Part shown: positions 11,013-30,526 of the stretch, one piece after another
Position numbering within the stretch: position 1 is the first letter of the stretch
Layout of the letters: every line of letters starts with the position of its first letter
Assembly: GCA_963845185.1 (NCBI GenBank)
Contig: CAWJRG010000009.1
Location: 352,001-416,000, forward strand
Direction: 5' to 3'
Source: an uncultured bacterium
Lineage (GTDB): Bacteria; Oederibacteriota; PGYV01; CAWJRG01
DNA: 64,000 bases
Made by a program: the position numbers and the translations under genes
Notes under the pieces: model-generated
Databases searched by the model: none
What the model was told of the DNA's origin: nothing
What the model saw: only the letters and a program-made list of their open reading frames with translations

Positions 11013-12047
11013 ATGCATTATGTCGGAGTTGATCTTCACAAAGAACAGTCATGGTTTTACGTTTCAGATCATGAAGGCAAAAGACTTATCAGTAAGAGTA
11101 TATCAAATTCGGAAGAGGAATTGAAACGGATATTTGAAATGATCCCAAAGCCATTCAAGTTGGGAGTAGAGGCCACAAGAAACTGGTACTTTTTTGTTGA
11201 TTTAGCCGAGCTTTATGCGGAAGAAGTCAATCTCGCGAATTCTTTCGAGCTCAAGGCTTTTGCAAAACGAAATAAGAAAACCGACAAGATAGACGCAAAA
11301 CTAATTTGCGATGTTCTGCGAATGGGTTTTCTTCCGAAAGTCAACATACCGCCAAAGCCCATAAGAGAAATACGTGAATTAATAAAATATAGAATGTCCC
11401 TTGTGTATGAGCGAACTTATAATATCAACAGGCTCAAAAATACGATGGGAAAACTAGGGCACGAATGTTGCAGCGATCTTACAAGATATAAACACTTAGA
11501 CAAAGTACAGACGGAGGAATTACCGGAGATATATAAAACTGTTATTAAAGGGCATCAAGAAAGGATTAGATTTTTAACTGAAAAAATTAATAGTATGAAA
11601 TTGTATCTCAAAGAAACGTTTGAAAATGACCCTGATATTAAGAACCTGATTACAATACCAGGCTTGAGTTATCTAAGCGCGGCAATAGTAAAGAGCGAGA
11701 TGATAGATGTAGCAAATTTTGCATCTTTTAACCGCCTTTGTTCCTTTGCCGGACTAGCTCCGCGAGTGAGCCGGAGTGCTAAAAAAGATATACACGGGCC
11801 TTTAAGCAGAAACAGGCGTAAATTACTTCAGTGGATATTGTTGGAAATAGTTCCTCATTATGTTAGAGCCTCAGAGGAAAAGAAAGCAAGATTCGATGAA
11901 ATAGTTAAAAGAAAAAGTTATAATACGGCAAAAGTTGTATTGGCCAGGGATCTTTTAAAGGTAATATATAATGTGCTACGAGATAAAAGAGAATATTATA
12001 GAAATACAATTCGGTCAACGGCGGGTGTCGCGCTCCACGGTGTCTGA
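11013..12047 (+). CDS. IS110-family DEDD recombinase/transposase
   Basis: VGVDLHK, GVEAT, KTDKIDA (DEDD RuvC domain); C-terminal FAGLAPRVSRSAK with the conserved Ser. Confidence 0.96.
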   Translation: MHYVGVDLHKEQSWFYVSDHEGKRLISKSISNSEEELKRIFEMIPKPFKLGVEATRNWYFFVDLAELYAEEVNLANSFELKAFAKRNKKTDKIDAKLICDVLRMGFLPKVNIPPKPIREIRELIKYRMSLVYERTYNINRLKNTMGKLGHECCSDLTRYKHLDKVQTEELPEIYKTVIKGHQERIRFLTEKINSMKLYLKETFENDPDIKNLITIPGLSYLSAAIVKSEMIDVANFASFNRLCSFAGLAPRVSRSAKKDIHGPLSRNRRKLLQWILLEIVPHYVRASEEKKARFDEIVKRKSYNTAKVVLARDLLKVIYNVLRDKREYYRNTIRSTAGVALHGV

Positions 12048-12190: not shown

Positions 12191-12680
12191 GGCTGAATGA
12201 AATTACAGAGGATTAACAAGGATTGGAATTCATTAACGTGATACGTGTCTTTATATTTGACAAACACTTAAATGGGTGACACCGTCGCCCACATATACTA
12301 TAACGCCGACAAAGACTGAAGTTCCGGCATCTTTTTATTTTAGATTAATAGCAAACTCTCCAAACCCAGCGAATAACTATACTTATATTATTTATGAGAT
12401 AGGCATAGGAGCAGAAGTAAAAGTAATAATATACACAATAAGCGGTGAAAAAGTAACTACGCTTGAGCAAGAAGGCTCGCAGGGAAGAAACCGCCTTCGA
12501 TGGAACTGCAAAAATTTTGCAGGCCATGACGTAGCAAGCGGAGTATATATTTATAGAATTGAAGCAGTATCAGGCAGCAATAAAGCAAAAGCGTGGAGTA
12601 AACTGGCGGTTTTAAGGTGATAGAACTATCTTAAGTGGTGTTTTATATGGTGAAAACCATTTCTGTTTATTAAAATTAAC

Positions 12681-12815: not shown

Positions 12816-15800
12816 GTGAACACAAGAAACCAGGTCAATAAATTCAAAAATACAATAATATTATTATTTTTATTTATGATATTTCTTTCATTAGTCCAAA
12901 GCCTTTCAGCCGCGGCAGCTTATACGTGGACGAATGTAGTTGTTCCAGCCGGAGGATTTGTGGCTGGCGTGGATTACAGCCCGGTGCAGCAAGGGCTTAT
13001 TTATGCCAGAACCGATATGGGCGGTTTTTACCGCTGGGATAACACCAACAACGTCTGGATACCTTTAACCGATATGTATGGCCTAAGCCAGTATACCTAT
13101 CACGGCGGTGAAAGCATAGCACCTGACCCGGTCAATGCTAATAACGTTTATGCGGCGGCTGGAATGTATTTAACCAACGGTAATGGGGCTATACTCAGTT
13201 CAACTAACCAGGGCACTTCCTGGACAATCAATCCAATTGCAGTTCCCATGGGAGGCAATAATGACGGCAGGGAAGCAGGTGAACGCCTTGCTGTCGACCC
13301 GAACCTAAACAGCATACTCTATTTCGCTTCACGTAATAACGGTCTTTGGAAAAGCACCAATTCAGCTGCCACTTGGGCACAGGTCGCAAGTTTCCCGACA
13401 AACGGCGACGCCAATTATGGATTAACCTATGTAATTTTTCTTCCTGGCGGAAATCCTTCCTCCGGCACAGAAACTATTTTTGTCGGCGTGGATTCCATGA
13501 GCGCGGGAAACAGCAGCCTCTACCGTTCCACGAACGCCGGCAGTAGCTGGGCCGTGGTCCCAGGCGGGCCTACCAACATGATAACTCCACATGCTTCATT
13601 AGGAACAGACGGGACTTTGTGGATTGTATATGACAGCGGCGGATACGGTCCCAACAGCATTACCACGGGGCAAATTTGGAAATTAAACACCAGCACACTG
13701 GCTTGGACACAGGTAACTTTACCTGGACCGGCTGCAGGTAACGGGGGATATGGTGGGATATGCGTGGACCATCAAAACGCCCAACACGTAGTTGTCTCAA
13801 CCCTGGATTGGTGGGGTGGCCCAGACCATATCTACAGTACCACCAATGGCGGGACAAGCTGGTCAGTCATAGGGAACGCACAAAACAGCTGGGACGCTGC
13901 GCCTTATGCTGTTTACAACAACAATGGAGCATTATGGACAAGATTTTGCGGTACATATGACGGAGGTACAGGATGGCAGGGGGACATCAAGATAGACCCT
14001 TTTAATTCAAACAATGCTATATATACCACAGGAGGAGGCGTTTGGAGCAGTACCAGTATAGAGGCAGGGACGCAGCCCGCTGGTGTCACCTGGATTTTCA
14101 CCGACTATGGATTGGAGGAAACGGCTGTAACCGATATGATAACTTCAGCACCGGGTGGGGTTTTCTTCAGCGCAGTGGGGGATATAACCGGGATGCGGCA
14201 TCCAAACGTAACACAATCTCCTCCGCTTGGAATGTATTGTGACCCATCCATGAGTACCACAGACGGCATTGATTATGCTGAACTTAACACGAATTTTGTG
14301 GTTCGCGAGGGGCACAGTTTATCAAGCGGCACCACTTCTGCCGGCGGATATTCCACTGATAACGGGCAGACCTGGACAGCTTTTGGCTCAAACCCGAACG
14401 GTTATTCTACAAGCGGCGGAAACGGGCAAATATCAGTAAATGCCAACGGTACTGTGATTCTTTGGGCGCTGCCTTCCAGCACAGCAGTATATTCTTCAAA
14501 CAACGGCACGACCTGGAATAATACATCAGGACTCCCTAACGGAGCTCAAATATGTTCGGACAGGGCAAATAATACTATATTTTATGGTATTTCAGGCACA
14601 ACACTTTATGTCAGTACAAACAGCGGGGCCAGCTTTTCCAGCGCGGGTACATATTCAGGCAGCATATCATGGGCTAACAGGCCAAGGGCTGTTTTTGGCA
14701 TAGCAGGTGAAGTCTGGGTTCCGACAGGCAGTGGCCTCTATCGGTTTACTAATGTAGGTTTGGGAACTGTGGCAACCACGCAGATTGCAAATGTGTCAAG
14801 CGCAGTGGCTGTAGGATTTGGCAAGGCGGCTTCAGGACAAACACATCCAGCGGTTTACCTGGCTGGGACTTTGAGCGGAACCTATGGCTTTTTCCGTTGC
14901 GATGACGGAGTCGGTACCACCTGGACCCAAATAAACGACGCTAATCACCAGTTCGGCGCGGCTGAATTCGCAGCAGGGGACGAAACGGTTTACGGCCGCA
15001 TGTATGTAGGTACCAATGGAAGGGGCATTCTTTATGGCGACATTTCTACTTCAGGTACTTCTACTGTAACACCGGCAATAACTTTAACTTATACAAGTAC
15101 AGCTACGCCAAATCCGACGAGAACTTTTACACCAACATATTCATACACATTGACTTCAACAAGGACGTCAAGCCCGACATATACCAGCACCCAGCAGATG
15201 ACACCGACTTCGACAGGAACAGCAACCGCAACTGTTACGAACACATCTTCATACACTTCAACTTCTACACGAACAGCAACGCAGACCTCAACGCTATCGC
15301 GGACATCTACCTTTACTCCAACAAATACGCCGACATATACAATTACAATAACATCAACAAGCACGCAACAGAATACGGTTACTTTAACAGAAACAAGGAC
15401 AAATACCGGCACTTATACAGCGACAGGGACTAATACCCCGGTACCCACAGGAACAAATACTGTAACACCTTCTTTAACGGCAACAAGAACAAACACGGTA
15501 ACATCTACCTTGACTGCGACTTCTACATCAACATATACAGTAACTCTGACATGGACAAACACCTTACAGAATACTGAAACTTTAACGGCTACAGGGACAA
15601 ATACAACATTGTCAACGGCAACAAGGACAAATACAAGCACATATACTGCGACAGAAACAAATACAGCAACACAGACATCAACAGCAACACGGACAAACAC
15701 TGCAACGACGACATTTACTGCGACAGCTACTCCAACATACACAATTACTCTGACATGGACAAGCACGTCACAAAACACAGTAACTTTAACTTCAACAGGA

Positions 15801-18161
15801 ACAAATACTGCAACACCTTCCTTAACGGCAACACGAACAAATACGGTAACGTCGACTTTGACTGCTACACCTACGCCAACATATACAGTTACATTAACAT
15901 GGACAAACACGTTGCAGAACACGGCAACTTTAACGGCGACACGTACAAATACATCAACGCTGACATTCACTGAGACAATTACGCCAACATATACAGTTAC
16001 ATTAACATGGACAAACACGTTGCAGAACACAGCAACTTTAACGGCGACACGTACAAATACATCAACGCTGACATTCACTGAGACAGTTACACCAACATAT
16101 ACAGTTACATTAACTTGGACAAATACACCACAGAACACGGCAACTTTATCAACGACATCTACTCTTACGGCGACAAGGACAAATACTGCGACGAATACAC
16201 CCACATATTCTGCTACAGCGACATGGACACTTACATTTACAACTACTTTTACGGTGACAGGAACATTCACGGAGACATTAACTTTAACAAGAACGATAAC
16301 ATCAACGCTAACTAATTCACCTGTGGTATCAGAAACACCAACTTATACAGCAACGATTTTTACCCCGACAATTACGCCAACGTCCACAATATCACCGACA
16401 ATTACATTGACAGATACAGCATCGCCTACTGGGACACCAACTTTTACTGCGACAAGGACAAACACAGGCACAAATACGCCGACTTATACAGTAACTTTGA
16501 CATGGACAAACACATCACAGAACACAGTAACATTTACAGCTACGGGAACAAATACGACAAATCCTACAGGTACAAGTACAGGGACACCTACACTTACAGT
16601 TACACGGACAACTACAGTTACAAATACGCCGATAAACACACCTTCATATACAGTAACATTGACTTATACATTGACAGTTACATCAACATTTACCAATTCA
16701 CCGGTGGTATCACCTACGCCGACATTTACTAATATAATATTCACATGGACAATTACGCAGACTTCTACCTCATCGCCAACAATCACATTGACAAATACAC
16801 CATTACCAACAGGTACAGATACGGAGACGGTTACGTTCACTGCGACAAAAACAGACTCCGCAACCACAACCTTCACTGTTACACCTACGCCAACATATAC
16901 AGTTACATTAACATGGACAAGTACGTTGCAGAATACTGCCACTTTAACAGCAACAGGAACAAATATAGCGTCGCCTACAGTTACATATACAAATACCTGC
17001 GATTGTACGGGCACAGAAACAGTGACACCTACATTTACGTTTGTAGCGACAAGGACAAACACCGGAACATCGACAGTGACGAATACGTCCACAAATACAC
17101 CTTCGTTTACAGAAACATTGACATCCACAACAACAATTACATTAACATTAACTAATACTGAGGTTGTGTCAGAAACACCGACTTATACAGCGACAATTTT
17201 TACGCCGACAATTTCACCGACGTCTACCGTAACACCAACAATAACATTGACAGATACACCATCACTAACAGACACGGTAACGTCGACTGCAACAGAAACA
17301 GAGACAAGGACAAATACATTATTACCTACACTTACAAATACGCCAGAGAATACCGCAACAAGCACAGTGACGCCTACTGTAGGAGCAAACCTTGTAGCGG
17401 ATATTACTATTTCACAGGGGAGTGCAATGATAGGGCAGGATATAACCGTAATAATGCAGGTAGTAAATACAGGGACAAATGGCGTGAATAATTTACAGCC
17501 TTCAGCGCTGGCTCAAACAGGCGGTGGAACAGCTATCCTTATAAGCGGGCCCATGCCTGCAAGCACTGCAATAGTCTCAGATTCATCAGGATCATTTACG
17601 TGGGTATATACAGTGACTTCCGTGGCAGGAAATATAGCATTCAGCGGGTCGGCAAGCGGCACAGACGCGATAAACGGCACAATAGTATCAACTGCGATAG
17701 TGACCAGCAATCCATTAATATGCGTTACAGCCACGGCAACAATAGCAAATTCAATTACAATTACCGTAACGCCGACATATACAATAACGCCTAGTATTAC
17801 GACAACAAATCCAGTTGCGACAGCCAGCTTTACACCGACAAACCAGGTTCCTGTTTTCACGGCTACAGCCACATTTGTAATTACTACACAGCCGCCAGGG
17901 CCGCCAAGGATATATCCAAACCCAGTAAAAGACAGGTTTAGATATGTATTTACCCTGACGGAAGATGCAGATATAGAAATAACTATATATACAGCGTCAT
18001 ACAGGCTGATAGCAAAATTTGATCAGTGGCAGAGCGCAGGATTAAATACTATTATAATCGGCGTACAAGGCTTGGCAAACGGTACATATTTTATCGTATA
18101 CAAGCAAAAAGGTCAGACAACAAATACAAAGAGAATTGATAAATTTATCATTTTAAAATAA
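12816..18161 (+). CDS. Secreted GH74 xyloglucanase/endoglucanase + ~780-aa Thr-rich tract + Ig-like domain + T9SS type-A-like C-terminal domain
   Basis: Signal peptide; YARTDMGG, GERLAVDP, GDITG, YVGTNGRGI (GH74); C-terminal IYPNP...IYTASYRLI...LANGTYFI...KFIILK. Confidence 0.9.
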   Translation: MNTRNQVNKFKNTIILLFLFMIFLSLVQSLSAAAAYTWTNVVVPAGGFVAGVDYSPVQQGLIYARTDMGGFYRWDNTNNVWIPLTDMYGLSQYTYHGGESIAPDPVNANNVYAAAGMYLTNGNGAILSSTNQGTSWTINPIAVPMGGNNDGREAGERLAVDPNLNSILYFASRNNGLWKSTNSAATWAQVASFPTNGDANYGLTYVIFLPGGNPSSGTETIFVGVDSMSAGNSSLYRSTNAGSSWAVVPGGPTNMITPHASLGTDGTLWIVYDSGGYGPNSITTGQIWKLNTSTLAWTQVTLPGPAAGNGGYGGICVDHQNAQHVVVSTLDWWGGPDHIYSTTNGGTSWSVIGNAQNSWDAAPYAVYNNNGALWTRFCGTYDGGTGWQGDIKIDPFNSNNAIYTTGGGVWSSTSIEAGTQPAGVTWIFTDYGLEETAVTDMITSAPGGVFFSAVGDITGMRHPNVTQSPPLGMYCDPSMSTTDGIDYAELNTNFVVREGHSLSSGTTSAGGYSTDNGQTWTAFGSNPNGYSTSGGNGQISVNANGTVILWALPSSTAVYSSNNGTTWNNTSGLPNGAQICSDRANNTIFYGISGTTLYVSTNSGASFSSAGTYSGSISWANRPRAVFGIAGEVWVPTGSGLYRFTNVGLGTVATTQIANVSSAVAVGFGKAASGQTHPAVYLAGTLSGTYGFFRCDDGVGTTWTQINDANHQFGAAEFAAGDETVYGRMYVGTNGRGILYGDISTSGTSTVTPAITLTYTSTATPNPTRTFTPTYSYTLTSTRTSSPTYTSTQQMTPTSTGTATATVTNTSSYTSTSTRTATQTSTLSRTSTFTPTNTPTYTITITSTSTQQNTVTLTETRTNTGTYTATGTNTPVPTGTNTVTPSLTATRTNTVTSTLTATSTSTYTVTLTWTNTLQNTETLTATGTNTTLSTATRTNTSTYTATETNTATQTSTATRTNTATTTFTATATPTYTITLTWTSTSQNTVTLTSTGTNTATPSLTATRTNTVTSTLTATPTPTYTVTLTWTNTLQNTATLTATRTNTSTLTFTETITPTYTVTLTWTNTLQNTATLTATRTNTSTLTFTETVTPTYTVTLTWTNTPQNTATLSTTSTLTATRTNTATNTPTYSATATWTLTFTTTFTVTGTFTETLTLTRTITSTLTNSPVVSETPTYTATIFTPTITPTSTISPTITLTDTASPTGTPTFTATRTNTGTNTPTYTVTLTWTNTSQNTVTFTATGTNTTNPTGTSTGTPTLTVTRTTTVTNTPINTPSYTVTLTYTLTVTSTFTNSPVVSPTPTFTNIIFTWTITQTSTSSPTITLTNTPLPTGTDTETVTFTATKTDSATTTFTVTPTPTYTVTLTWTSTLQNTATLTATGTNIASPTVTYTNTCDCTGTETVTPTFTFVATRTNTGTSTVTNTSTNTPSFTETLTSTTTITLTLTNTEVVSETPTYTATIFTPTISPTSTVTPTITLTDTPSLTDTVTSTATETETRTNTLLPTLTNTPENTATSTVTPTVGANLVADITISQGSAMIGQDITVIMQVVNTGTNGVNNLQPSALAQTGGGTAILISGPMPASTAIVSDSSGSFTWVYTVTSVAGNIAFSGSASGTDAINGTIVSTAIVTSNPLICVTATATIANSITITVTPTYTITPSITTTNPVATASFTPTNQVPVFTATATFVITTQPPGPPRIYPNPVKDRFRYVFTLTEDADIEITIYTASYRLIAKFDQWQSAGLNTIIIGVQGLANGTYFIVYKQKGQTTNTKRIDKFIILK
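15873..16150 (+). repeat. 108-bp (36-aa) near-identical tandem repeat inside the GH74 Thr tract
   Basis: TPTYTVTLTWTNTLQNTATLTATRTNTSTLTFTET(I/V) at 15873 and 15981, partial third copy at 16089. Confidence 0.85.
17162..18161 (+). repeat. ~1-kb direct repeat copy 1 (end of Thr tract, Ig domain, C-terminal domain); copy 2 at 22774-23773
   Basis: Colinear, highly similar DNA at constant 5612-bp offset, beginning GGTTGTGTCAGAAACACCGACTTATACAGCG. Confidence 0.9.
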
Positions 18162-18311
18162 AATATAATTTTATCATTTAAACAAGAAATTTTACTTTAA
18201 AATGTTCTTAAAAAGGGAAAAGAAAAATTTTTTTAATACTTCGGAACTTTTTTGGAAAATATTTGTCTAATAATTATGAGATATTACCGAAAACTACCCG
18301 GAGGCAATTTG

Positions 18312-18674
18312 ATGAATATTATAAAAGAAGACTTTAGGGACATTTTATCATATAAAGAAGCCCTTGCAATAATATGTATATCCATAAATTATGCTTATCA
18401 TCAGGCCATAATAGATATTGAACGAATGGCGAAATTTATTGGTTTATCAACTGACGATTTAAAAAAAATGGGAAGAGTATTTGAAATTCTCAAGCTTGGA
18501 AAAATTCAGTTAAAAGACGGCAGGGAAATACTTGAAGTTTATGATGTTAAAGATGAAGAAGTAAAAAATACCATGTATGAGGCAATCTGGAATAAAAAGG
18601 ATGACTATGCAGCAATCTGCCAAAAGCTTATTGCGGATGGCATAGAAGGTGTATACGAGATAAACGCGAATTAA
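18312..18674 (+). CDS. Hypothetical cytoplasmic protein (possible winged-helix fold)
   Basis: GGAGG RBS before ATG 18312 (in frame with listed ORF 18252); segment IERMAKFIGLSTDDLKK is HTH-like, weak. Confidence 0.6.
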   Translation: MNIIKEDFRDILSYKEALAIICISINYAYHQAIIDIERMAKFIGLSTDDLKKMGRVFEILKLGKIQLKDGREILEVYDVKDEEVKNTMYEAIWNKKDDYAAICQKLIADGIEGVYEINAN

Positions 18675-18738
18675 TTATTCTATTCAAGTGTTCGTGAATT
18701 ATTGCTAAGCATGATAAACCATTCAAAACAAAGCCAAG

Positions 18739-18767
18739 TTGACAAGCACTGTTTTATATAGTAAACT
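18739..18767 (+). promoter_or_regulatory. Sigma70-type promoter upstream of GH30 gene
   Basis: TTGACA-N17-TAAACT. Confidence 0.55.
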
Positions 18768-18829
18768 TAGTTAAAGGTTTAAACAAGTGTGAATTGTGAA
18801 CAATACCAAGTCCGGGAGAATTCAGTCAA

Positions 18830-21800
18830 ATGAAAATCAAAGTAATATCCATATTAATTTGCCTTATTGCATTAGGCATGTCATCAATTATTTATGGTGG
18901 AAACTGCACTGTTGATTGGGGAACAGTGCATCAAAGCATAAGAGGTTTTGGCGCATGCAGTGCATGGAGCAGTACTGCCTTTCCGAGTGCACTTGCCGAC
19001 TTTTTTTTCGATACCAGCGGGTCAAATTTAGGCATATCAATTTACCGAACAAGAATACCCCCCGACGGAACAATGACAGGAGAAATTTCTTCAGTGCAGG
19101 AAGCTCTTGCCCGGAATGCAAATATTATTGTTTGGGCAGCGCCGTGGTCGCCGCCAGCGAGCATGAAAAACACCGATAATGTCGATACTGGTGTACTTTT
19201 GACATCGGATTACCAAGCATATGCAAATTATCTCACTACTTACGCTAAAAATTTCCAAACGGCAGCCGGTGTAGGATTGTATGCTATGTCAGCACAGAAT
19301 GAACCTGATTGGCCCACAGGCTCTTATGAGGGTTGCACATGGAGCGCCCAGCAACTGCATGATTTTATATTAAATAACCTTGGCCCAGCAATGGCATCAA
19401 GCAACCCAAATGTAAAAATAATGATGCCAGAATCTTTTGGCGATAATCTGGCTATGTCAGACACTACATTAAATGATTCCAATGCGGCGAAATATGTAAG
19501 TGTAGTAGGAGAGCATCTGTACGGCCTGAGCGGAAATGAACCCAAAACTCCCAATGCTTATCCATTGGCTGTTTCACTCGGCAAGGAGTACTGGGAAACA
19601 GAATTCTACAATAACAGCCTTTCTTCTTATGACGCCACCATGACCGAAGGGTTAAATACAGCAGTCCAAATGCATGATGCCCTTACAATAGCAAATTTTA
19701 ATGCCTACCATTACTGGTGGTTTGTCTCGAGCGGGACAGACAACGGCGGTTTGGTGCCAACCGGCACCACATCATCATCAGGTGCGCCAAAAACGGCTTT
19801 TTGTTTTGGCCAATTCTCGAAGTTTATTAGGCCCGGTTATGTCAGGATGGACAGTACTGTCAATCCTACAAGCGGAGTTTATGTATCGGCATATCAATTG
19901 GCATCAACCGGCGCCTTCGTAATAGTAGCCATTAATACAAATTCATCCACAACGAGCCAGTCGTTTACCCTGAATGCAATGTCTGTTTCATCAGTTACAC
20001 CGTGGGTTACCGACCCAAACAACAGCCTGACACAGCAAGGCGCTCAGGCGGTATCGGGAAATAGCTTTACATACAATTTGACTGCCAGCAGCGTAACAAC
20101 TTTTATCGGAGTAAGCGGGAATATTACTGTTTCACCCACTGTTACGTTTACGATAACGCAGACTCCCACGCCGGTTTGCGGAGTGGAGCTTGATAATTTT
20201 GCCTCGTGCAGCACCACAAATGCCTGGGGTGCAGGCTGGTATGATTTTGCTGATACAGGTACTACTTTAACACCATCACCATTAACGCTTGCATCAACTT
20301 CATCTGGATCGTCGGGATGTTCCGCACAGATAAGCGGAACACAGAGTACCAGTGGTTATGCCGGTCTTGGCACAAACCTGGATTCCGCTGGAACAACAGT
20401 GAATATGACTGCTTATACGGGTGTCCAATTTTACGTGAAGGGAGATGGTGGTACATATTGGTTTCAGGTTACAGAACCAAGTGTAACAGATGGGGATAAT
20501 TTTGGACATTCTTTTACTGCTCCGACAACATGGACGCTAGTTACCATATACTTTTCAAGTCTTGCGCAGCGCGGATTCGGGACAGCAGAAACTTTTACTC
20601 AAAATCAACTTGAAGCCCTTCAGTGGATGACAACTGCAGCGGGAAGCTTTAATCTTGATATTGATGATATAGTTTTGATCAGCTCTGCGTGCAATTCTCC
20701 CACTAATACGCCAAATATGACTAAAACTAATACGCCGACTCTTACAAGGACTCCTACGTCAGCACAAAGTCCGACATCTTCTTCAACCGCAAGTTATACT
20801 GTAACAGCAACAAGGACAAGCACATTAACAACAACAGCCACGGCAACTCTAACAGGCACATATACGGCAACAGGAACATTAACGCCTGTTAATACTGCCA
20901 CATTGACCATAACTCAGACTTTCACACTAACGTCAAGCAGGACAGCTACTTCTTCAAATACAGCAACAGGCACGTTAACATTCACACCGACACTTACAGT
21001 TACAAAAACAAACACATTAACAAATACGCCTACATATACAGTCACTCTGACTTGGACAATAACATCACAAAACACAGCAACTTTAACAGCCACAAATACA
21101 AATACAGCATTGCCGGCAGCTACAAGGACAAATACCGGGACAAATACCATTACAATGACAGAGACAAGCACAGGAACGCCTACGCTTACTGTGACAAAAA
21201 CAAACACATTGACAAATACTCCTACTTATACAGTTACGCTGACCTGGACAAACACGGCACAGAACACGATAACTTTAACAGCAACAGGGACAAACACACT
21301 ATTGCCGACAGGGACAAGTACATCGACGCCTACATTTACTTCGACAAGGACAAATACACCGACATATACATTAACTCTGACTTGGACAAATACACCGCAG
21401 AACACGTCGACTTTAACTTCAACGGGCACAAACACAGTATCAATGACGGCTACAAGGACAAATAGCGGGACAAATACAATTACAATGACAGAAACCAGCA
21501 CGCCATTGAATACAGCGACTTTAACAGCAACAGACACAAATACTGCAACGCTAACGCTTACTACTACAAGAACAAATACTTTAACTGTCACTTTGACAAG
21601 TACAATGTCCAACACAGCGACGCCGACATTGACAGTGACATTAACTTTCACGAGGACAGTTACACCAACAAATACAAATTCACCAGCAGTATCACCAACG
21701 CCGACATTTACGAATATAGTATTTACGTGGACAATTACGCAAACATTCACTGTATCGCCGACAATTACATTGACAGATACACCGCTGCCAACGGGAACTA

Positions 21801-23773
21801 ATACGGGGACGCCAACATTTACAGTAACAAGAACAAACACGGTGACAAATACGCCGACGTATACAGTTACACTAACTTGGACAAGCACACTACAAAACAC
21901 GGCAACTTTAACGGCAACAGGCACAAGCACTACGACAAGGACGCCCACGTACACAATTACACTGACTTTTACATCGACAGTTACACCGACAAATACCAAT
22001 TCACCTGTGGTGTCACCCACACCTACATTTACTAATATAGTTTTTACATGGACAATAACGCAGACATTTACTATATCGCCGACAATAACAATAACAAATA
22101 CACCTCTGCCGACTGGAACAAATACGGGAACACCTACGTTTACTACAACAAGGACAAACACAGAAACATCAACTTTTACTATGACACATACGCCAACGAA
22201 CACAGCAACTCTGACTTGGACAAGCACAGCACAGAATACGGCGACTTTAACAGCAACAGATACAAATACACCGTTACCGACAAGCACAAGCACAAACACA
22301 ACGACACCTACTTTTACAGCTACGAGGACAAACACAGCGACTGATACTCCGACAAACGCGCCTTCATATACAGTAACATTGACTTTTACATTGACGGTTA
22401 CATCAACATTTACCAATTCGCCGGTGGTATCACCTACGCCGACATTTACTAATATAATATTCACGTGGACGATTACGCAAACATTTACAATATCGCCGAC
22501 AATAACAATTACAAACACTCCTACGCATACACCGAGCGATACTCCAACAAATACACTTACTAATACAGAAACAAACACACTGGTAAATACAGCGACAGAT
22601 ACGCTTGTTAATACAAAGACAAACACGCCAGTAAATACAGCAACTGATACACCCATCAATACAGAGACAGATACACCGGTTAATACTGCGACAGATACAC
22701 CAATAAATACAGCAACGGATACACCAGTAAATACAGCAACAGACACACCGGTTGATACAGATACAGACACGCCGGTTGTGTCAGAAACACCGACTTATAC
22801 AGCGACAATTTTTACGCCGACAATTTCACCGACGTCTACCATAACACCAACAATAACATTGACAGATACACCATCATTAACAGACACGGCAACATCGACT
22901 GCAACAGAAACAGAGACTTGGACAAATACATTATTACCTACACTTACAAATACGCCAGAGAATACCGCAACAAGCACAGTGACGCCTACTGTGGGAGCAA
23001 ATCTTGTAGTGGCTATTACTATTTCGCCAGGGAATGCAATGGTTGGCCAGAATATAACCGTAATAATGCAGGTAGTAAATACAGGGACAAATGGTGTGAA
23101 TAATTTACAACCTTCAGCGCTGGCTCAAACAGGCGGTGGAACAGCTGTCCTTGTAAGCGGACCCATGCCTGTAAGCACTGCAATAGTTTCAGATTCAACA
23201 GGATCATTTACATGGGTATATACAGTGACTTCCGTGGCAGGAAATATAGCATTTAGCGGGTCGGCAAGCGGAACAGACGCGATAAACGGCACAATAGTAT
23301 CAAGCTCAATAGTATCAAGTAGTCCATTAATATGCGTTACAGCCACAGCAACAATAGCAAATTCAATTACAGTTACCGTAACATCAACATATACGATAAC
23401 GCCGAGTATTACGGCGACAAATCCAGTGGCGACAGCCAGCTTTACACCGACAAACCAGGTTCCTGTTTTCACGGCTACAGCCACATTTGTAATTACTACG
23501 CAGTTGCCAGGGCCGCCAAGGATATATCCAAACCCGGTAAAAGACAGGTTTAGATATGTATTTCCCCTGACGGAAGATGCAGATATAGAAATAACCATAT
23601 ATACAGCGTCATACAGGTTGATAGCAAGATTTGACCAGAGACAGAGCGCGGGATTAAACACTATTGTAATAGACACACAAGGCATGGCAAACGGAACATA
23701 TTTTATAGTATATAAGCAAAAAGGGCAGACAACAAATACAAAGAGAATTGATAAATTTATTGTATTAAAATAA
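18830..23773 (+). CDS. Secreted GH30 (xylanase-like) + CBM11/CIA30-like module + ~760-aa Thr-rich tract + Ig-like + T9SS type-A-like C-terminal domain
   Basis: IRGFGA, WSPPASMK, QNEPD (acid/base), WETE (nucleophile); beta-sandwich YTGVQFYVKGDG...WTLVTIYFSSL...IDDI; C-terminal IYPNP...KFIVLK. Confidence 0.88.
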   Translation: MKIKVISILICLIALGMSSIIYGGNCTVDWGTVHQSIRGFGACSAWSSTAFPSALADFFFDTSGSNLGISIYRTRIPPDGTMTGEISSVQEALARNANIIVWAAPWSPPASMKNTDNVDTGVLLTSDYQAYANYLTTYAKNFQTAAGVGLYAMSAQNEPDWPTGSYEGCTWSAQQLHDFILNNLGPAMASSNPNVKIMMPESFGDNLAMSDTTLNDSNAAKYVSVVGEHLYGLSGNEPKTPNAYPLAVSLGKEYWETEFYNNSLSSYDATMTEGLNTAVQMHDALTIANFNAYHYWWFVSSGTDNGGLVPTGTTSSSGAPKTAFCFGQFSKFIRPGYVRMDSTVNPTSGVYVSAYQLASTGAFVIVAINTNSSTTSQSFTLNAMSVSSVTPWVTDPNNSLTQQGAQAVSGNSFTYNLTASSVTTFIGVSGNITVSPTVTFTITQTPTPVCGVELDNFASCSTTNAWGAGWYDFADTGTTLTPSPLTLASTSSGSSGCSAQISGTQSTSGYAGLGTNLDSAGTTVNMTAYTGVQFYVKGDGGTYWFQVTEPSVTDGDNFGHSFTAPTTWTLVTIYFSSLAQRGFGTAETFTQNQLEALQWMTTAAGSFNLDIDDIVLISSACNSPTNTPNMTKTNTPTLTRTPTSAQSPTSSSTASYTVTATRTSTLTTTATATLTGTYTATGTLTPVNTATLTITQTFTLTSSRTATSSNTATGTLTFTPTLTVTKTNTLTNTPTYTVTLTWTITSQNTATLTATNTNTALPAATRTNTGTNTITMTETSTGTPTLTVTKTNTLTNTPTYTVTLTWTNTAQNTITLTATGTNTLLPTGTSTSTPTFTSTRTNTPTYTLTLTWTNTPQNTSTLTSTGTNTVSMTATRTNSGTNTITMTETSTPLNTATLTATDTNTATLTLTTTRTNTLTVTLTSTMSNTATPTLTVTLTFTRTVTPTNTNSPAVSPTPTFTNIVFTWTITQTFTVSPTITLTDTPLPTGTNTGTPTFTVTRTNTVTNTPTYTVTLTWTSTLQNTATLTATGTSTTTRTPTYTITLTFTSTVTPTNTNSPVVSPTPTFTNIVFTWTITQTFTISPTITITNTPLPTGTNTGTPTFTTTRTNTETSTFTMTHTPTNTATLTWTSTAQNTATLTATDTNTPLPTSTSTNTTTPTFTATRTNTATDTPTNAPSYTVTLTFTLTVTSTFTNSPVVSPTPTFTNIIFTWTITQTFTISPTITITNTPTHTPSDTPTNTLTNTETNTLVNTATDTLVNTKTNTPVNTATDTPINTETDTPVNTATDTPINTATDTPVNTATDTPVDTDTDTPVVSETPTYTATIFTPTISPTSTITPTITLTDTPSLTDTATSTATETETWTNTLLPTLTNTPENTATSTVTPTVGANLVVAITISPGNAMVGQNITVIMQVVNTGTNGVNNLQPSALAQTGGGTAVLVSGPMPVSTAIVSDSTGSFTWVYTVTSVAGNIAFSGSASGTDAINGTIVSSSIVSSSPLICVTATATIANSITVTVTSTYTITPSITATNPVATASFTPTNQVPVFTATATFVITTQLPGPPRIYPNPVKDRFRYVFPLTEDADIEITIYTASYRLIARFDQRQSAGLNTIVIDTQGMANGTYFIVYKQKGQTTNTKRIDKFIVLK
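22577..22775 (+). repeat. 24-bp (8-aa) degenerate tandem repeats T(P/L)(V/I)NTATD
   Basis: About 8 units TLVNTATD/TPVNTATD/TPINTETD in the GH30 tract. Confidence 0.75.
22774..23773 (+). repeat. ~1-kb direct repeat copy 2 (shared with GH74 gene 3' end)
   Basis: See 17162-18161. Confidence 0.9.
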
Positions 23774-23876
23774 CCGATATAAATAAGCACGCAATAGAAA
23801 ATAAATTGCGGCCATATTTTTTTAATGATGATTATCTAACTGGCAAAATAATTATTGCAAAGGTGAACGAAATAAA

Positions 23877-26800
23877 ATGAAAAAAAAATTACAGAATACC
23901 TTGAGAGTCATAACTGCATATTTAATAATATTATTTTTATTTTCATTTAAACTTTTTGCAGCAAATACTGATATTCGCCTGAATTCGCTGGGTTTCCAGC
24001 CAAGTTACAATAAATATGCATCAATAGATTTGACTTGTACAAATTTCTATGTTGTAACTGTACCAGCTGGTGTGACTGTTTATACTGGCACGGTTGGAAA
24101 TGCCATTAACGCAACAGACAGCGGGGAAACAGTAAGAGTAGCAGATTTTTCATCGTTAACGACCGAAGGAACATATTGCGTTAATGTACCTGGAGTCGGG
24201 AACTCAGCGACCTTTTCAATAAATAAAACGGTTTATAATAATGCATTTTATATGGCCATGAAAGCAATGTATTTGTGGAGATGCGGAACAGCGGTATCAT
24301 ATACATATCCGGCAGACGGTAATACTTATTCCCATGCAGCCTGCCATGAAAATGACGCTTATCTTGATGATGTAGGAGGGCCTAATGGGACTATTAAAAC
24401 AGCCACAGAAGGCTGGCATGATGCAGGTGATTATAATAAATATACTGTAAACGCGGCTATAACACTGGGCATGATGTATATGGCCTGGGAACAGTTCCAA
24501 AATAAGATTAACCAAATACCTTTGAACCTTCCTGTAACTGCTGCCGGATACCCGGAATACCTCGAAGAAACAAAATGGGAGACTGACTGGCTGCTTACAA
24601 TGCAGGCTTCAAATGGAGGAGTATATGACAAGGTAAGTGAAGCTGCTTTCTGCGCTTTTATAATGCCTGAAGCAAATACCGTAGACAGGTACTTTTGGGG
24701 TTATGGCAATATTGGGACGGTTGAAACGGCAACATTCTGCGCTGTGATGGCGATGGGCGCGAGAATATATTCACCTTATGATTCTGCTTATTCGACGAAA
24801 TGCCTTAATGCAGCATCAGCCGCCTATAGTTATCTGACAAATAATGCGACTAACACCACGGCAAACCTTACGGGATGCACGACCGGGAACTATAGCACAA
24901 GCGATGCCAATGAAGGAAGACTTTGGGCAGCTGCGGAAATGTGGGAGACGACAGGTACCGCTACGTTTTTGAATGATTTTGAAACAAGGGCAAATGGATA
25001 TTCTCCAACTTATGTTGATTCTGATTTTGACTGGTCGAATGATAAAAACCTTGGCATGTATACATACGTTCTGTCAACAAAATCAGGAAAGAATGCCACG
25101 CTTCTGACAAATATTAAAAATAATATCATATCCGATGCTAATGGAATCACGACAACTGCATTCAGCCATCCTTATGGACGTCCGCTTGGCACAAACTATT
25201 ACTGGGGATGCAACGGAGGCAATGAGAGGACGGCCATGCTCCTGCAAATAGCAAACCAAATATCGCCGAGTACTAATTATCTTAACGGCGTACTTGATGC
25301 TGTTGCTTATGTCTTTGGCAGAAATATGCATGACAGGTCGTATATTACAGGTGTTGGAATCAACCCGCCGATGAACCCGCACCACAGGCCTTCGGGAGCA
25401 GACGGCATTACCAATCCATGGCCGGGATACATGGTCGGAGGGTCATCAGGAGCAAACAGCAATGACCCTGTTGAAACACTCACGCCGACAGGGCTACCGC
25501 CTGCAGAATACTGGACAGACCAGCAGGGAGCGTATTCGTCAAATGAGGTTGCAATAAATTGGGAGGGCGCGCTTATTTACGCTCTTGCAGGGTTTATAGA
25601 TTTTGATATAACTAATACAGTGACAGTATCGCCGACCCTTACAAAGACAACACAACCAACGTTCACAATTACTCCAACACAAACAGCCACAGGGACTAGG
25701 ACAGATACTTTTACCATAACTCCGACAAGTACTCCAAGCAGAACTGCTTCAGGCACTTTTACAGCTACGGCAACGTTTTCCGGAACCCAAACGTTGACAT
25801 TAACGCAAACATTTACTTATTCTGTAACTGCCACATGGTCGCCTACGAGAACAGGCACACCCACTTATTCAAGCACTGTTTCCGCTACGTCTACATTCAC
25901 CGGGACAGTGACACCAAGTTTTTCCCAAACCAACACAATACTTTTATCAAGGACAGCAACTCCTACTTTCAGCTTTACGGCAACAATGTCATTTACAGCG
26001 ACAGGGACAGAAACGCCAACCAGCACTCCTACAGCTTCCAATACCATTACAAGCACATTTACTGGAACAACGACACAGACACGCACGTCGTCATTTACAG
26101 ATACGGCTACTTTTACCTTGACAGTAACGTCAACATTTTCTCCTACGTCGACTTATACGCAGACTTCTACCGCCACAAGAACAGCTACTTTGACATATAC
26201 TTTGACTAATACGGCCACTTCAACTTTTAGTGCAACGGGCACGGATACACTTACAGCCTCGGCTACCAGAACTCCTTCGGCAAGTTTAACAATAAGCATT
26301 ACACTCACGAATACGTCAACGCCATCATTTACGCAAAGCGCGACAGTAACTAATTCAAGTACATTAACACAAACAGCTTTTTATACTGCAACAAAGACAT
26401 TTACGTTAACAGCGACAGGGACAGAAACGCCAACCAGCACTCCTACAGCTTCCAATACCATTACAAGCACATTTACTGGTACAACGACGCAGACACGCAC
26501 ACCTTCGTTTACAAATACATTGACTTTTACTTTCACATCAACATCAACTCTTTCTGTCACGCCGACAGATACACGGACTTCTACCTTGACCGCCACAATA
26601 ACAAATTCGCCGGTAGTATCGCCAACTCCCACATTTACAAATATTGTGTTTACATGGACAATAACACCAACATATTCCATTTCCCCAACGGTAACGCTGA
26701 CGTCGAGTAGCACACTAACGAATACGGCAACGCCCTCGTTTACAGCGAGTGTTACAGGAACTAATTCAAGTACGGCAACACAAACAGTTTCTTATACAGC

Positions 26801-28478
26801 AACAAGGACATTTACATTAACGGCGACAGGGACAGCAACGCCAACCAGTACGCCTACAGCTTCAAATACCATTACAAGCACTTTGACTGGCACAGCGACG
26901 CAGACGCGGACGCCTTCGGTTACAGATACGGGCACTTTTACTGCAACAACAACATTAACCATCTCTAATACACCAACACATACACCAACTTTTACTTTGA
27001 CAATTACAATTACAAATTCGCCGACCATTACATTAACAGCGACAGGGACAAGTACGCCAACCAGTACTCCCACAGCTTCAAATTCAATAACAGTCACTTT
27101 TACGGGTACAGCGACTCATACTCAGACACCTACACTTACAGATACGCCGACTTTTACTTTAACAGTAACGTTAACACTTTCTTATACTCCAACACATACC
27201 CCTACTTTCACTTTGACCGTCACAATAACAAATTCACCGGTTGTATCGCCAACACCCACATTCACAAATATAGTGTTTACGTGGACAATAACACCGACAT
27301 ATACTATTTCCCCAACAATAACACTTACGATGACGTCGAGCAATACACTAACAAATACAGCAACACCGACAAGCACATTTACAGGGACTGTGACACAGAC
27401 ACCTTCATTTACATATTCGGCAACTTTCACTTTGACGGCTACATTAACTCTGTCTCCAACGCAGACATATAGCTCAACTTCTACTTTGACAATAACACTA
27501 ACGCTTTCTTCCACGAAAACAGAAACGACGACTTGCACTTTGACAGCCACAATTACAGATTCGCCAGTAATATCACCGACACCTACATTTACTTCTATTA
27601 TTTTTACATGGACAATAACACCGACATTAACAATTTCCCCAACGATAACACTGACTCAGGCAAATACATTTACAAATACTCCAACATCCTCTATCACAGT
27701 TACAAGCACGGAGACACAGACACCTTCGTATACAGATACGGAGACTCTTACTCTGACATTAACGTCAACGCTTTCTTCGACGGCTACAGAAACGTCGACT
27801 TGCACTTTGACAGTCACAATTACAAATTCTCCTGTGGTAACGCCAACGCCGACATTCACAAATATTGTGTTTACGTGGACAATAACGCCGACATATACTA
27901 TTTCCGCAACAATAACGCTGACGCCAAGCAATACACTTACAAATACACCAACGATTTCATTGACACCAAGCGCTACAGGAACTAATTCGAGCACAGAGAC
28001 GCAAACAGTTTCCTTTACAGCAACCGCAACAGTTACATTTACAAATTCAATAACGCCTTCAGAAACATTAACACTTTCTCAAACACTTACAGCTTCAACC
28101 ACATTAACTCCAACGATAAACCCCATATTAACAATAACAGCGACAGCCACTGTAGAGCAGGAAAAACACAAAAAGCCAAAACCATATCCCAACCCTTTGA
28201 ATCCAAAAATAATACCGGAATTATATATTGCATATAGTTTTGATGATACAGATATTGACAGTGTAAAGTTCAGAATGTATACATCGGCTTACAGATTAAT
28301 AAGGGAAATAAAATTTGAAAAGTCAGAAGCCATGGCAATGGCACAACAGGGAATAATAACGTGCTCGACGGACGGGTTAAAAGATTTAAGCAGCGGTTCA
28401 TATTTTTATATTATTTTAACAGAAAAAGCAGGAAAAGAACAAAGTTCAAAAATCGATACTATTATTATTTTAAAATGA
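23877..28478 (+). CDS. Secreted GH9 endoglucanase (N-terminal Ig domain) + ~850-aa Thr-rich tract + T9SS type-A-like C-terminal domain
   Basis: IRLNSLGF (CelD_N), [24 protein letters not shown]-terminal PYPNP...[10 protein letters not shown]...LSSGSYFY...TIIILK. Confidence 0.9.
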
Positions 28479-28675: not shown

Positions 28676-30526
28676 ATGAAAATAACAAGAAAAACAAGGA
28701 AATTAAAAAAGGCATTATCGAAACATACAAACAAATCAAAAAATATAAAAAAATACTTAAATAATATAAAATCAAAACTCCATTTTTCTGAAGAATTCTG
28801 CAACAAACTTGTCATGACATCGCCTGACTCCGTTGTTCTTATTGATACAAAAAGCAAAATTATTTACGTGTCCGAAAGAACCGTTGAAATGTGCGGGTGC
28901 AAGTCCAGCGATGATTTAATCGGCAAAAACGCGTTTGATTTTTTCGCTTCCGAAGACAGGCAAAGGGCAACCTTCAATCTCCAAAAAACATTTGGCGAAG
29001 GTTTTGTCGGCAAAACGCAATACACAATGCTCAAAAGCAATGGGGAAAAATATTTAGCTGAATTAAACGCCACGGTTATCAAAGACATTAAAGGTACACC
29101 TATGGCTGTCATGGCTACAATAAGAGATATGACGGAATCCAAGAAAAAGGATGAAAAGGTAAAAACGAGCGAGGAAAAATATGAAACTCTTTTTAATTCT
29201 GCGAATGATTCAATATTTGTCCACGAAATAACAAAAGACCTTCAACCAGGCAGGTTTATAGAGGCAAATGAAATATCATACAAGAGACTCGGATATACAA
29301 GGGAGGAATTTTTAAAATTAGGACCATTTGACATAATTCCGCAGGGGAATATGCAAAAGACATTGTGGGCATGGGAAAAAATTTTTAAAGAAAAGAGTGC
29401 AGTATTTGAAACCGAGGCAAAAACCAAAAACGGCAATATGATTCCTATTGAAGTGAACGCCCATTTAATTGAAAAAAATGGCGGACTTCAATTATTGGTT
29501 ATAGCCCGCGATATTACTCAGCGAAAGCGAGATGAGGAAATTTTAAGGATTTCGGAGTCAAATTACAGGTCTATTTTCAACGGAATGGATGATTCGGTAG
29601 TGCTTTTAGACATTGAAACCAAAAAAGTAATTGACATGAACGAAGCCGCCGTAGAAAAACTCAGCATTGCCAATAAAGAAATTAAAAATTTTAATATAAA
29701 AGATTTTGGCTCTGCTGAGCCGCCGTATTCAAAACAGGACGTGATGAAGTGGATTGAAAAGACCATAAACGAAGGGCCGCAGTTATTTGAGTGGAAAAGA
29801 ATAGACAGCAAAGGCGATATTATGTGGATGGAAGTCAGCTTGAGAAAAACAGTAATAAACAACAGAGAATGCCTGCTTGCTATAAACAGAAATATAAACG
29901 CACGGAAAAAAGCGGAGGATGAATCAAAGCAAAGCTATAAAATGATTGAAAAAATTTTGGATGGTGTTATCCAGACAATGGAAAATCTTGTTGAAAAAAA
30001 AGACATATATACCGTGGGGCATCAGCGCAGGACAGCTGAAGTCGCCACTTTAATAGCGCTTGATATGGGTTTTTCTGAATCCAGGGCAAACGGCGTTTAT
30101 ACGGCCGCAAGGATACACGATATAGGGAAAATATTTGTACCGGGCAATATATTAAATAAAGTTGAACCACTGACTGGGGAAGAATTTGGGCAGATAAAGA
30201 TGCATGCGCAGGCCGGTTATGAAATATTAAAAGCAATAGATTTCCCGTGGCCCATAGCACAGATGATTCGACAGCACCACGAAAGAATGGACGGTTCCGG
30301 ATACCCATTGGGATTAAAAGGCGAGGATATACTCATCGAAGCAAGGATAATCGCTGTGGCTGACGTTGTAGAGGCAATCACGTTTGAGCGGCCATACAGG
30401 GCAGCTTTTGGCCTTAACATAGCACTTAACGAATTAAAAAAGAACCGAGGAAGGCTTTATGATGAGAAAGTTGTAGATGCATGCCTTAAAATATTCGAGG
30501 AAAATAAGTTTGTATTCAAAAAATAA
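28676..30526 (+). CDS. PAS-PAS-PAS HD-GYP c-di-GMP phosphodiesterase
   Basis: Three PAS/PAC units (RDMTE, RDITQRK, RNINARK); IHDIGK, HHERMDGSGYP, IAVADVVEA, RPYR. Confidence 0.92.
   Translation: MKITRKTRKLKKALSKHTNKSKNIKKYLNNIKSKLHFSEEFCNKLVMTSPDSVVLIDTKSKIIYVSERTVEMCGCKSSDDLIGKNAFDFFASEDRQRATFNLQKTFGEGFVGKTQYTMLKSNGEKYLAELNATVIKDIKGTPMAVMATIRDMTESKKKDEKVKTSEEKYETLFNSANDSIFVHEITKDLQPGRFIEANEISYKRLGYTREEFLKLGPFDIIPQGNMQKTLWAWEKIFKEKSAVFETEAKTKNGNMIPIEVNAHLIEKNGGLQLLVIARDITQRKRDEEILRISESNYRSIFNGMDDSVVLLDIETKKVIDMNEAAVEKLSIANKEIKNFNIKDFGSAEPPYSKQDVMKWIEKTINEGPQLFEWKRIDSKGDIMWMEVSLRKTVINNRECLLAINRNINARKKAEDESKQSYKMIEKILDGVIQTMENLVEKKDIYTVGHQRRTAEVATLIALDMGFSESRANGVYTAARIHDIGKIFVPGNILNKVEPLTGEEFGQIKMHAQAGYEILKAIDFPWPIAQMIRQHHERMDGSGYPLGLKGEDILIEARIIAVADVVEAITFERPYRAAFGLNIALNELKKNRGRLYDEKVVDACLKIFEENKFVFKK

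Follow-up and report, generated by a model that had tools for sequence, protein, structure and literature searches.

What are the long tracts of alternating threonine that fill the middle of three neighbouring glycoside hydrolases in an uncultured bacterium of the candidate division FCPU426/Goldbacteria group? The three genes lie on the plus strand of a 64,000-nt stretch of contig CAWJRG010000009.1 (assembly GCA_963845185.1), referred to below as the window, and encode a GH74-like xyloglucanase, a GH30 enzyme and a GH9 cellulase; positions are window coordinates unless amino acids (aa) are specified. A first-pass annotation, made from the nucleotide letters alone, had proposed that the tracts form a rigid beta-solenoid stalk. 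The analysis reported here makes it probable instead that they are hyper-expanded, low-complexity inter-domain linkers, or tethers, for surface-displayed enzymes, and that the same device is used throughout the secreted proteome of the lineage.

Three glycoside hydrolases with alternating threonine tracts

Pairs of Thr at positions i and i+2 numbered 295 in the GH74 protein, 278 in the GH30 protein and 268 in the GH9 protein (counted within limits a few residues wider than the refined ones given below, for which the counts are 294, 277 and 268), about twice the means of 154.6, 140.3 and 139.7 (each ± 6.8) obtained from 500 shuffles of each tract. The earlier observation that almost every second residue is Thr over 750–850 aa was thereby upheld. 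Adjacent TT is rare (13, 10 and 10 occurrences in GH74, GH30 and GH9, respectively), the longest unbroken (T/S)-x runs extend over 56, 58 and 102 residues, and the Thr register switches 20, 14 and 16 times per tract. Ser and Thr together make up 49–53% of tract residues. The residues between the threonines are A, S, L, N, V, P, Y, R, G, F, I and W, matching the patterned residues listed in the first-pass annotation; 45–47% of the non-Thr residues are hydrophobic, 9–12% are aromatic and 6–9% are charged, and Pro accounts for 6–8% of tract residues overall. TPTYTVTLTWT-like words, quoted earlier as an example from the tracts, were recovered seven times in GH74 and five times in GH30, with no occurrence in GH9. 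All four Thr codons are in use (in GH74, 208 ACA, 62 ACT, 60 ACG and 18 ACC).

Each of the three open reading frames (ORFs) reads open and stop-free from the catalytic domain through to the C-terminal domain, and the enzyme names given them earlier hold, by a match to solved proteins for GH74 and by Pfam for GH30 and GH9. The GH74-like xyloglucanase gene (12816–18161, +) encodes 1781 aa that carry a signal-like hydrophobic stretch at the N-terminus, and aa 29–741 resemble solved xyloglucanases (best PDB match 6p2m, E 5e-150). Its alternating Thr-x tract (15048–17375, +; aa 745–1520) is 776 aa long with 44.7% Thr and is followed by an Ig-like (DUF11/CARDB-like) beta-sandwich domain (17376–17729, +; aa 1521–1638), a second, short Thr-rich linker (17730–17927, +; aa 1639–1704) and a C-terminal type IX secretion system (T9SS)-type sorting domain (17928–18158, +), matched by Pfam Por_Secre_tail at aa 1699–1773 with 29.8 bits (cut-off 27). 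The limits of the Ig-like domain and of the short linker were transferred from the GH30 copy with a 134-residue offset, set on a common sequence motif.

The GH30 gene (18830–23773, +) encodes 1647 aa, with Pfam GH30 at aa 25–426 and a CIA30-like match at aa 504–611; against the NCBIfam XynC-like model the protein scored 239.6 bits, under the 650-bit cut-off. The parts follow in the same order, with an alternating Thr-x tract of 762 aa and 43.2% Thr (20702–22987, +; aa 625–1386), the Ig-like beta-sandwich domain (22988–23341, +; aa 1387–1504), a second, short Thr-rich linker of 66 aa (23342–23539, +; aa 1505–1570) and the T9SS-type C-terminal sorting domain (23540–23770, +; Por_Secre_tail at aa 1565–1639, 33.6 bits). 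The GH9 cellulase gene (23877–28478, +) encodes 1533 aa, with CelD_N at aa 30–108 and GH9 at aa 120–570 (Pfam E 1.1e-76). Its tract (25608–28151, +; aa 578–1425) is of the alternating Thr/Ser-x kind, 848 aa long with 40.7% Thr and 12.4% Ser, and leads to a C-terminal domain (28185–28475, +) that resembles a T9SS sorting domain at a score below the Pfam threshold; its tail pattern, YRLI...YYY...KIDxIIILK, also ends other tract ORFs of the same genome. These refined tract limits agree within about 10 nt with those proposed before (approximately 15045–17380, 20695–22990 and 25610–28150).

Conservation, spread and surroundings of the tracts

For counts of conservation, a 256-aa window of the GH74 tract was aligned with 22 paralogous tract segments and codons were counted on the alignment. 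Thr columns kept Thr in 2017 of 2285 cells, 1172 of these by another codon, a conservation of 88% that is inflated because the aligner tends to put Thr on Thr; 64 of the 67 near-invariant Thr columns used three or four codons. Where Thr was lost, Ser took its place in 157 of 268 changes, compared with about a quarter expected from single-base neighbours (a rough estimate, uncomputed). Non-Thr columns were identical in 643 of 2629 cells (24%). As read from this alignment, selection appears to retain a hydroxyl group at every second position rather than a particular sequence or fold. Tandem Repeats Finder detected small arrays only (for example, 108 bp × 3 at 89% and 24 bp × 9 at 75%). An artefact, be it a wrong frame, a non-coding repeat or a misassembly, was considered and rejected: the frame is open to the sorting domain, Thr is encoded by all four codons and 28 of 30 relatives show the trait as well.

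The three tracts of the window are neither the sole nor the largest ones in the genome. Across its 3.5 Mb, 156 ORFs bear tracts, which total 51,274 aa and take up 4.4% of the DNA. Tract amounting to 500 aa or more is present in 37 ORFs, single tracts reach up to 2,652 aa, and the GH74, GH30 and GH9 ORFs rank 25th, 29th and 30th of the 156 by total tract length. A pattern of ten alternating Thr codons matched the genome 7,535 times, against 36 matches for the reversed control. Beyond the three proteins of the window, 30 heads preceding tracts of at least 500 aa were compared with Pfam (E ≤ 1e-6). Eight were glycoside hydrolases (five GH8 and one each of GH9, GH5 and GH116), one had DUF11 only, one was a Kelch protein, one a DUF5122 propeller, and 18 had no Pfam match. 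Since the heads are largely unmatched or other than carbohydrate-active enzymes (CAZymes), the tether would be a general one and not specific to CAZymes.

Two further features of the tract repertoire were noted. The largest tract ORF (3445 aa, contig C1, minus strand), which holds the 2,652-aa tract, ends in a low-complexity tail rich in H, R and Q; this tail resembles a Thr-x tract translated in a different frame and so suggests that a frameshift or an assembly error lies close to the 3' end. In about 12 other ORFs, TPTWTPTNTPT arrays place Trp at every eighth residue; 423 copies of TPTNTPT and 340 of TPTWTPT were counted.

The alternating-Thr pattern was present in 28 of 30 related genomes, comprising all 23 of the same order and five of seven from elsewhere in the phylum, with about 150 to several thousand matches in each positive genome. 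One GC-rich relative encodes its tracts by ACG/ACC codons. Five outgroup genomes from other phyla that have GH9 relatives gave 0, 0, 0, 2 and 0 matches. The two relatives with zero matches, G025 (96% complete) and G026 (93%), have four and one Por_Secre_tail matches and 10 and 47 PMT_2 matches, respectively, despite their lack of tracts. Among 80 GH9 loci drawn from all phyla, four hold an ORF with at least 90 T-x-T pairs, and these are the closest relatives (two of them at 59–62% identity); the other 76 have at most 14. Occurrence of the motif is thus not strictly limited to the phylum, for some unplaced metagenomic proteins have similar tracts.

The GH9 homologs show how the motif varies in related enzymes. 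In the closest of them, the catalytic part is 55–71% identical and the ORFs have 787–1276 aa, as against 1533 aa here; a GH9 paralog in the same genome is 71% identical with an ORF of 936 aa. In six of the nine GH9 orthologs read, Thr-x stretches of about 40–60 aa link GH9 to a domain resembling a carbohydrate-binding module (CBM), with more Thr-x downstream, amounting to about 200 aa up to the C-terminal domain where the locus reached the gene end. In the other three, one Thr-x stretch spans the distance from GH9 to the C-terminal domain. Across these orthologs the stretches measure about 40–250 aa, and the intervening residues vary by genome, being Arg-rich in one ortholog and forming TNTATVPTNTFT arrays in another. 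In these orthologs the motif thus provides linkers, short and inconstant in length, at every junction between domains. GH9 orthologs also have, immediately ahead of the sorting domain, (I/V)(I/V)F(T/S)PTFT elements that loosely resemble the SPVV module of about 36 aa described below; the exact pattern (I/V)(I/V)FTPTFT had four matches in three of 31 genomes and none in the genome studied here, and is not a general motif as written.

Rearrangement of tract DNA is apparent between the genes of the window. At their 3' ends, the GH74 gene (17162–18161) and the GH30 gene (22774–23773) share 1,000 nt at 92.7% DNA identity (blastn). This cassette runs from the end of the tract through the Ig-like domain and the short linker to the sorting domain, and the same cassette terminates six ORFs of the genome, which suggests that stalk-anchor modules have been swapped between different enzyme heads. 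Outside the cassette, the tracts share only patches at 73–83% identity, mostly over a module of about 36 aa (SPVV...FTWTIT...SPTITLT) that interrupts the Thr register and has 76–83% DNA identity between the three genes. With a loose pattern, copies of this SPVV module were located at aa 1168 and 1295 of GH74, aa 1058, 1197 and 1314 of GH30 and aa 911, 1120, 1229 and 1318 of GH9, and genome-wide there were 22 copies in 10 ORFs. A GH74 module of four 36-aa units is 60–85% identical to paralogs in the same genome and 46–57% identical to sequences of other genomes, the latter being roughly the identity that results from alternating Thr by itself.

Mobile elements flank the glycoside hydrolase cluster. 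An IS110-family transposase gene lies inside the Thr-x tract of a PQQ_2-like beta-propeller cargo gene (9344–10930, 11013–12047, 12261–12620), where the upstream ORF ends within the tract and a 119-aa downstream ORF starts in the tract and holds an orphaned Por_Secre_tail (27.7 bits). Directly 3' of GH9 are a PAS/HD-domain signalling protein (28676–30526) and a 532-aa GH44 enzyme without a long tract (30593–32191), and after GH44 follows a DDE transposase (32947–34278). Antisense ORFs run over the tract genes at 15413–16270 (−, 285 aa), 21226–22770 (−, 514 aa) and 23125–23790 (−, 221 aa). The first two fall inside tracts, seem to arise from the period-6 ACN-NNN composition and might be annotated as genes by mistake; the third covers the Ig-like and sorting-domain region of GH30.

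Predicted structure and proposed export and glycosylation

Beta-solenoid antifreeze proteins are built of short strands in coils of fixed length around a conserved core, and T-x-T arrays are known on antifreeze and ice-nucleating proteins. No constant repeat period was found in any of the three tracts, the best lags giving 13–21% identity at non-Thr positions and differing between tracts; a clean 36-aa period is confined to aa 1020–1164 of GH74 (145 aa). The positions that would have to form a core are close to free, because the hydrophobic class was kept in 53.3% of differing aligned non-Thr pairs, near the 50.6 ± 1.2% found in shuffles.

AlphaFold2, applied to aa 960–1215 of GH74 (256 aa, 23-row paralog alignment), gave a mean predicted local distance difference test score (pLDDT) of 35.9 with 0 of 256 residues at 70 or above, and drew a hairpin at residues 43–73 of this segment with pLDDT of about 40–49; for sequence of low complexity and paralog alignments this shallow, such low confidence is no proof of disorder. 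In a second run, on the last 137 tract residues of GH30 and all that lies downstream (22 rows), the tract and the short linker scored 28–43 (the linker about 31–43), and the Ig-like domain (81–93) and the sorting domain (76–88) served as internal controls. Since these folded flanks scored well, AlphaFold2 sees folds at this alignment depth, and it saw none in the tracts. Neither did it give a fold for the SPVV module. Foldseek matched the Ig-like domain of the GH30 model to generic Ig-like sandwiches only. A protein-atlas search with aa 960–1215 of GH74 returned scores of at most 0.82 and clusters labelled as viral, and these leads were dropped. Structure prediction on tract windows, the check put forward together with the solenoid idea, thus returned no confident fold.

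In all three proteins the tract sits between the catalytic part and the C-terminal sorting-type domain. This arrangement is common in the genome, where 54 of the 70 Por_Secre_tail matches (E ≤ 1e-3) fall in tract ORFs and where, in ORFs whose tract amounts to 200 aa or more, a median of 183 aa separates the end of the last tract from the C-terminus. A crude regular expression for the tail, which by eye misses many tails, marked 74 of the 156 tract ORFs and 14 of 1361 other ORFs of at least 300 aa. PorV gave two matches over the cut-off, and Peptidase_C25/PorU-like proteins gave two, one of them in an ORF with a sorting domain; a 2148-aa ORF is distantly SprA-like. An outer membrane is indicated by the flagellar L- and P-ring genes and Lnt, all present in the window.

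In the mechanism that we propose, each enzyme would be made with a signal peptide, be exported across the outer membrane via a T9SS-like route that reads the C-terminal sorting domain, and stay tethered by its C-terminus. The Thr-x tract would serve as a long non-globular tether, with a contour length of about 195–290 nm (at 2.5–3.4 Å per residue) and far less if coiled, and would bring insoluble plant polysaccharide that lies outside the cell's surface layers within range of the catalytic head. Dense O-glycans would keep the hydrophobic, beta-prone chain soluble, extended and resistant to proteases. Tract length would shift fast as pieces of tract, and entire cassettes of stalk plus anchor, are duplicated and recombined. 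Of what the first-pass annotation had suggested, the long spacer between head and sorting domain is retained, possibly O-glycosylated in view of the 88% retention of Thr and of Ser as its main substitute, and the rigid solenoid rod is not.

As to glycosylation, a hydroxyl group alternates, with Ser as substitute, along a chain that is hydrophobic, charge-poor and beta-prone, and dense O-glycosylation would therefore be the most economical means of solubilising and extending it. By analogy with glycosylated linkers and stalks, the Thr and Ser residues of the tracts may thus be densely O-glycosylated. The genome has 33 matches to PMT_2 (GT-C) and 13 to Wzy_C (of the O-antigen ligase/O-oligosaccharyltransferase type); these represent capacity only and are circumstantial for O-glycosylation, and they seem many for a genome of 3.5 Mb, a judgement made without a baseline. 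A wider and more tentative proposal is that the Goldbacteria group might practise a sequon-free, mucin-like O-glycosylation of alternating Thr on more than 100 T9SS-type cargo proteins. Tethers of up to about 200 nm could then form a brush, a bacterial 'mucin coat' that carries polysaccharide-degrading enzymes and fixes the cell to fibres, as a diderm equivalent, equipped with enzymes, of the serine-rich repeat adhesins of Gram-positive bacteria.

Several observations weigh against this account of the tracts. Their hydrophobic, aromatic, charge-poor and Pro-poor composition is odd for a disordered linker and strongly beta-prone, a pure spacer role does not explain the conserved SPVV module, and the caution attached above to low AlphaFold2 confidence applies here also. 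On the side of export, GldM, a T9SS motor protein, was not found in the genome with PF12081, the SprA-like pieces (69, 56, 43 and 29 bits, all in the 2148-aa ORF) do not attain the 200-bit cut-off, and the C-terminal domain of GH9 has no Pfam match at E ≤ 0.01. With regard to glycosylation, the three tracts have just three, two and two copies of the Bacteroidota sequon D(S/T)(A/I/L/V/M/T), PMT_2 genes are present in all 31 genomes and equally plentiful in both tract-less relatives, and no clustering of PMT_2 with tract genes was found (6 of 33 within 5 kb, compared with a random mean of 9.1). No link between PMT_2 and the tracts was thus found, either from the tract-less carriers or from gene proximity.

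Among the alternatives, the one that survives best, and that we still consider unlikely, is that the tract itself is adhesive or self-associating, either as a distributed cellulose binder acting through Thr, aromatics and glycans or as a cross-beta matrix by which enzymes and cells are glued onto fibres, and replaces or supplements binding modules. The GH9 protein of the window lacks a binding module after its catalytic domain, at the place where six of nine close orthologs have the CBM-like domain, and the TPTWTPTNTPT arrays present Trp with a spacing of eight. Alternating polar and non-polar patterns favour sheet formation, and glycosylated cellulase linkers reportedly bind cellulose, as Payne et al. 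are said to have described in 2013. A Goldbacteria genome was moreover obtained from cells sorted by binding of labelled cellulose (PMC7031533). Unlike a defined binding face, however, the intervening residues are not conserved, and tracts are also attached to non-CAZyme heads (18 of the 30 without a Pfam family and two Kelch or beta-propeller proteins).

A rigid beta-solenoid or other regular beta-rich rod, with Thr pointing outward on flat sheets and the intervening residues as core, so as to provide a stiff stalk or a binding face, is in our judgement improbable. Strict period-2 alternation would put Thr on one side; the other positions are beta-prone, hydrophobic and partly aromatic, the 145-aa stretch of GH74 does have a clean period, AlphaFold2 drew its low-scoring hairpin, and the T-x-T arrays of antifreeze and ice-nucleating proteins offer a precedent. 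Against this stand the lack of a constant period in every tract, would-be core positions with 24% identity and near-chance retention of hydrophobic class, a 36-aa module that is only 46–57% identical in other genomes, pLDDT of 28–43 beside domains at 76–93 in the same run, and orthologs that carry short, variable versions as linkers. That the extreme length is functionless, a tolerated linker motif having run away by slippage or unequal recombination under selection merely for a harmless Thr-x linker, is very improbable: several-fold length variation among close orthologs and paralogs, the shuffling of cassettes and modules between genes and the IS110 element within one tract would fit, but giving 4.4% of a 3.5-Mb genome over to tracts is expensive, recent tandem repeats account for the lesser part of the tract DNA, Thr columns are deeply diverged at synonymous level with the residue kept, and as many as 37 ORFs have tracts of at least 500 aa.

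Relation to known systems

In the literature searched, which excluded the supplements of the Goldbacteria cellulase paper (PMC7031533), no published description of such tracts, or of T9SS cargo bearing them, was found; the main text of that paper does not contain the words 'threonine', 'linker' or 'T9SS'. About 4% of the genome is spent on one probable linker idiom in this little-known cellulose-degrading candidate phylum, and the idiom therefore presumably matters for the attack on insoluble plant matter. Should the tethers be glycosylated, they would point to an undescribed bacterial route of O-glycosylation and a new form of cell-surface enzyme display, with a possible use in engineered surface display. 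For annotation, the tracts yield long spurious antisense ORFs, are liable to break short-read assemblies, and inflate the results of similarity searches, since composition by itself accounts for roughly 50% identity.

With T-x-T solenoid faces the tracts have alternate Thr in common, but they are without a fixed period, a conserved core or a confident predicted fold. Like T9SS type A cargo (PF18962), the tract proteins combine an N-terminal signal, a functional head and a C-terminal beta-sandwich sorting domain; in contrast to known T9SS cargo, they belong to a lineage outside the Bacteroidota, in which PorV-like and PorU-like genes were present and GldM was not found with PF12081. Mucin domains are long, repeat-variable, O-glycosylated spacers. 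The Ser/Thr-rich stalks of fungal adhesins such as Epa1 are likewise described as long, repeat-variable, O-glycosylated spacers that project a head (PMC7199969). Both are eukaryotic, are glycosylated by known machinery and show no strict register of period 2.

Closer in register are the serine-rich repeat proteins (SRRPs), cell-surface-anchored adhesins whose repeat regions of alternating Ser are O-glycosylated (PMC6973325). As described there, SRRPs share with the tracts a hydroxy amino acid at alternate positions along a region of hundreds to thousands of residues and a highly variable number of repeats. The tracts differ in having Thr instead of Ser, with far more varied and more hydrophobic partner residues, and in their host, which has an outer membrane; their C-termini are of the Por_Secre_tail type (...IILK or ...IVLK) rather than LPXTG, their heads are enzymatic, and they occur in 156 ORFs rather than in one or few.

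Linkers of cellulases are Ser/Thr-rich and glycosylated, and are thought to be extended and protected by their O-glycans; published means are 30–42 aa, the longest bacterial linker has 75 aa and Pro makes up about 35% in bacteria (PMC3490864). The statement of the first-pass annotation that ordinary PT/ST linkers are tens of residues long is in line with these values. Like the PT-box and Ser/Thr linkers so described, the tracts stand between modules of plant-polysaccharide hydrolases and are low-complexity, Thr-rich, poorly conserved and variable in length. At 762–848 aa, with a maximum of 2,652 aa among the other tracts of the genome, however, they are roughly 10- to 25-fold longer than the longest and the mean linker of that study, their Pro content of 6–8% is about a fifth, and 45–47% of their non-Thr residues are hydrophobic; the strict period-2 Thr register is a feature of the tracts and not of the cellulase linkers in that account. 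By analogy, the tracts would thus function like the PT and Ser/Thr linkers of cellulases and the stalks of SRRPs, yet they depart from both families.

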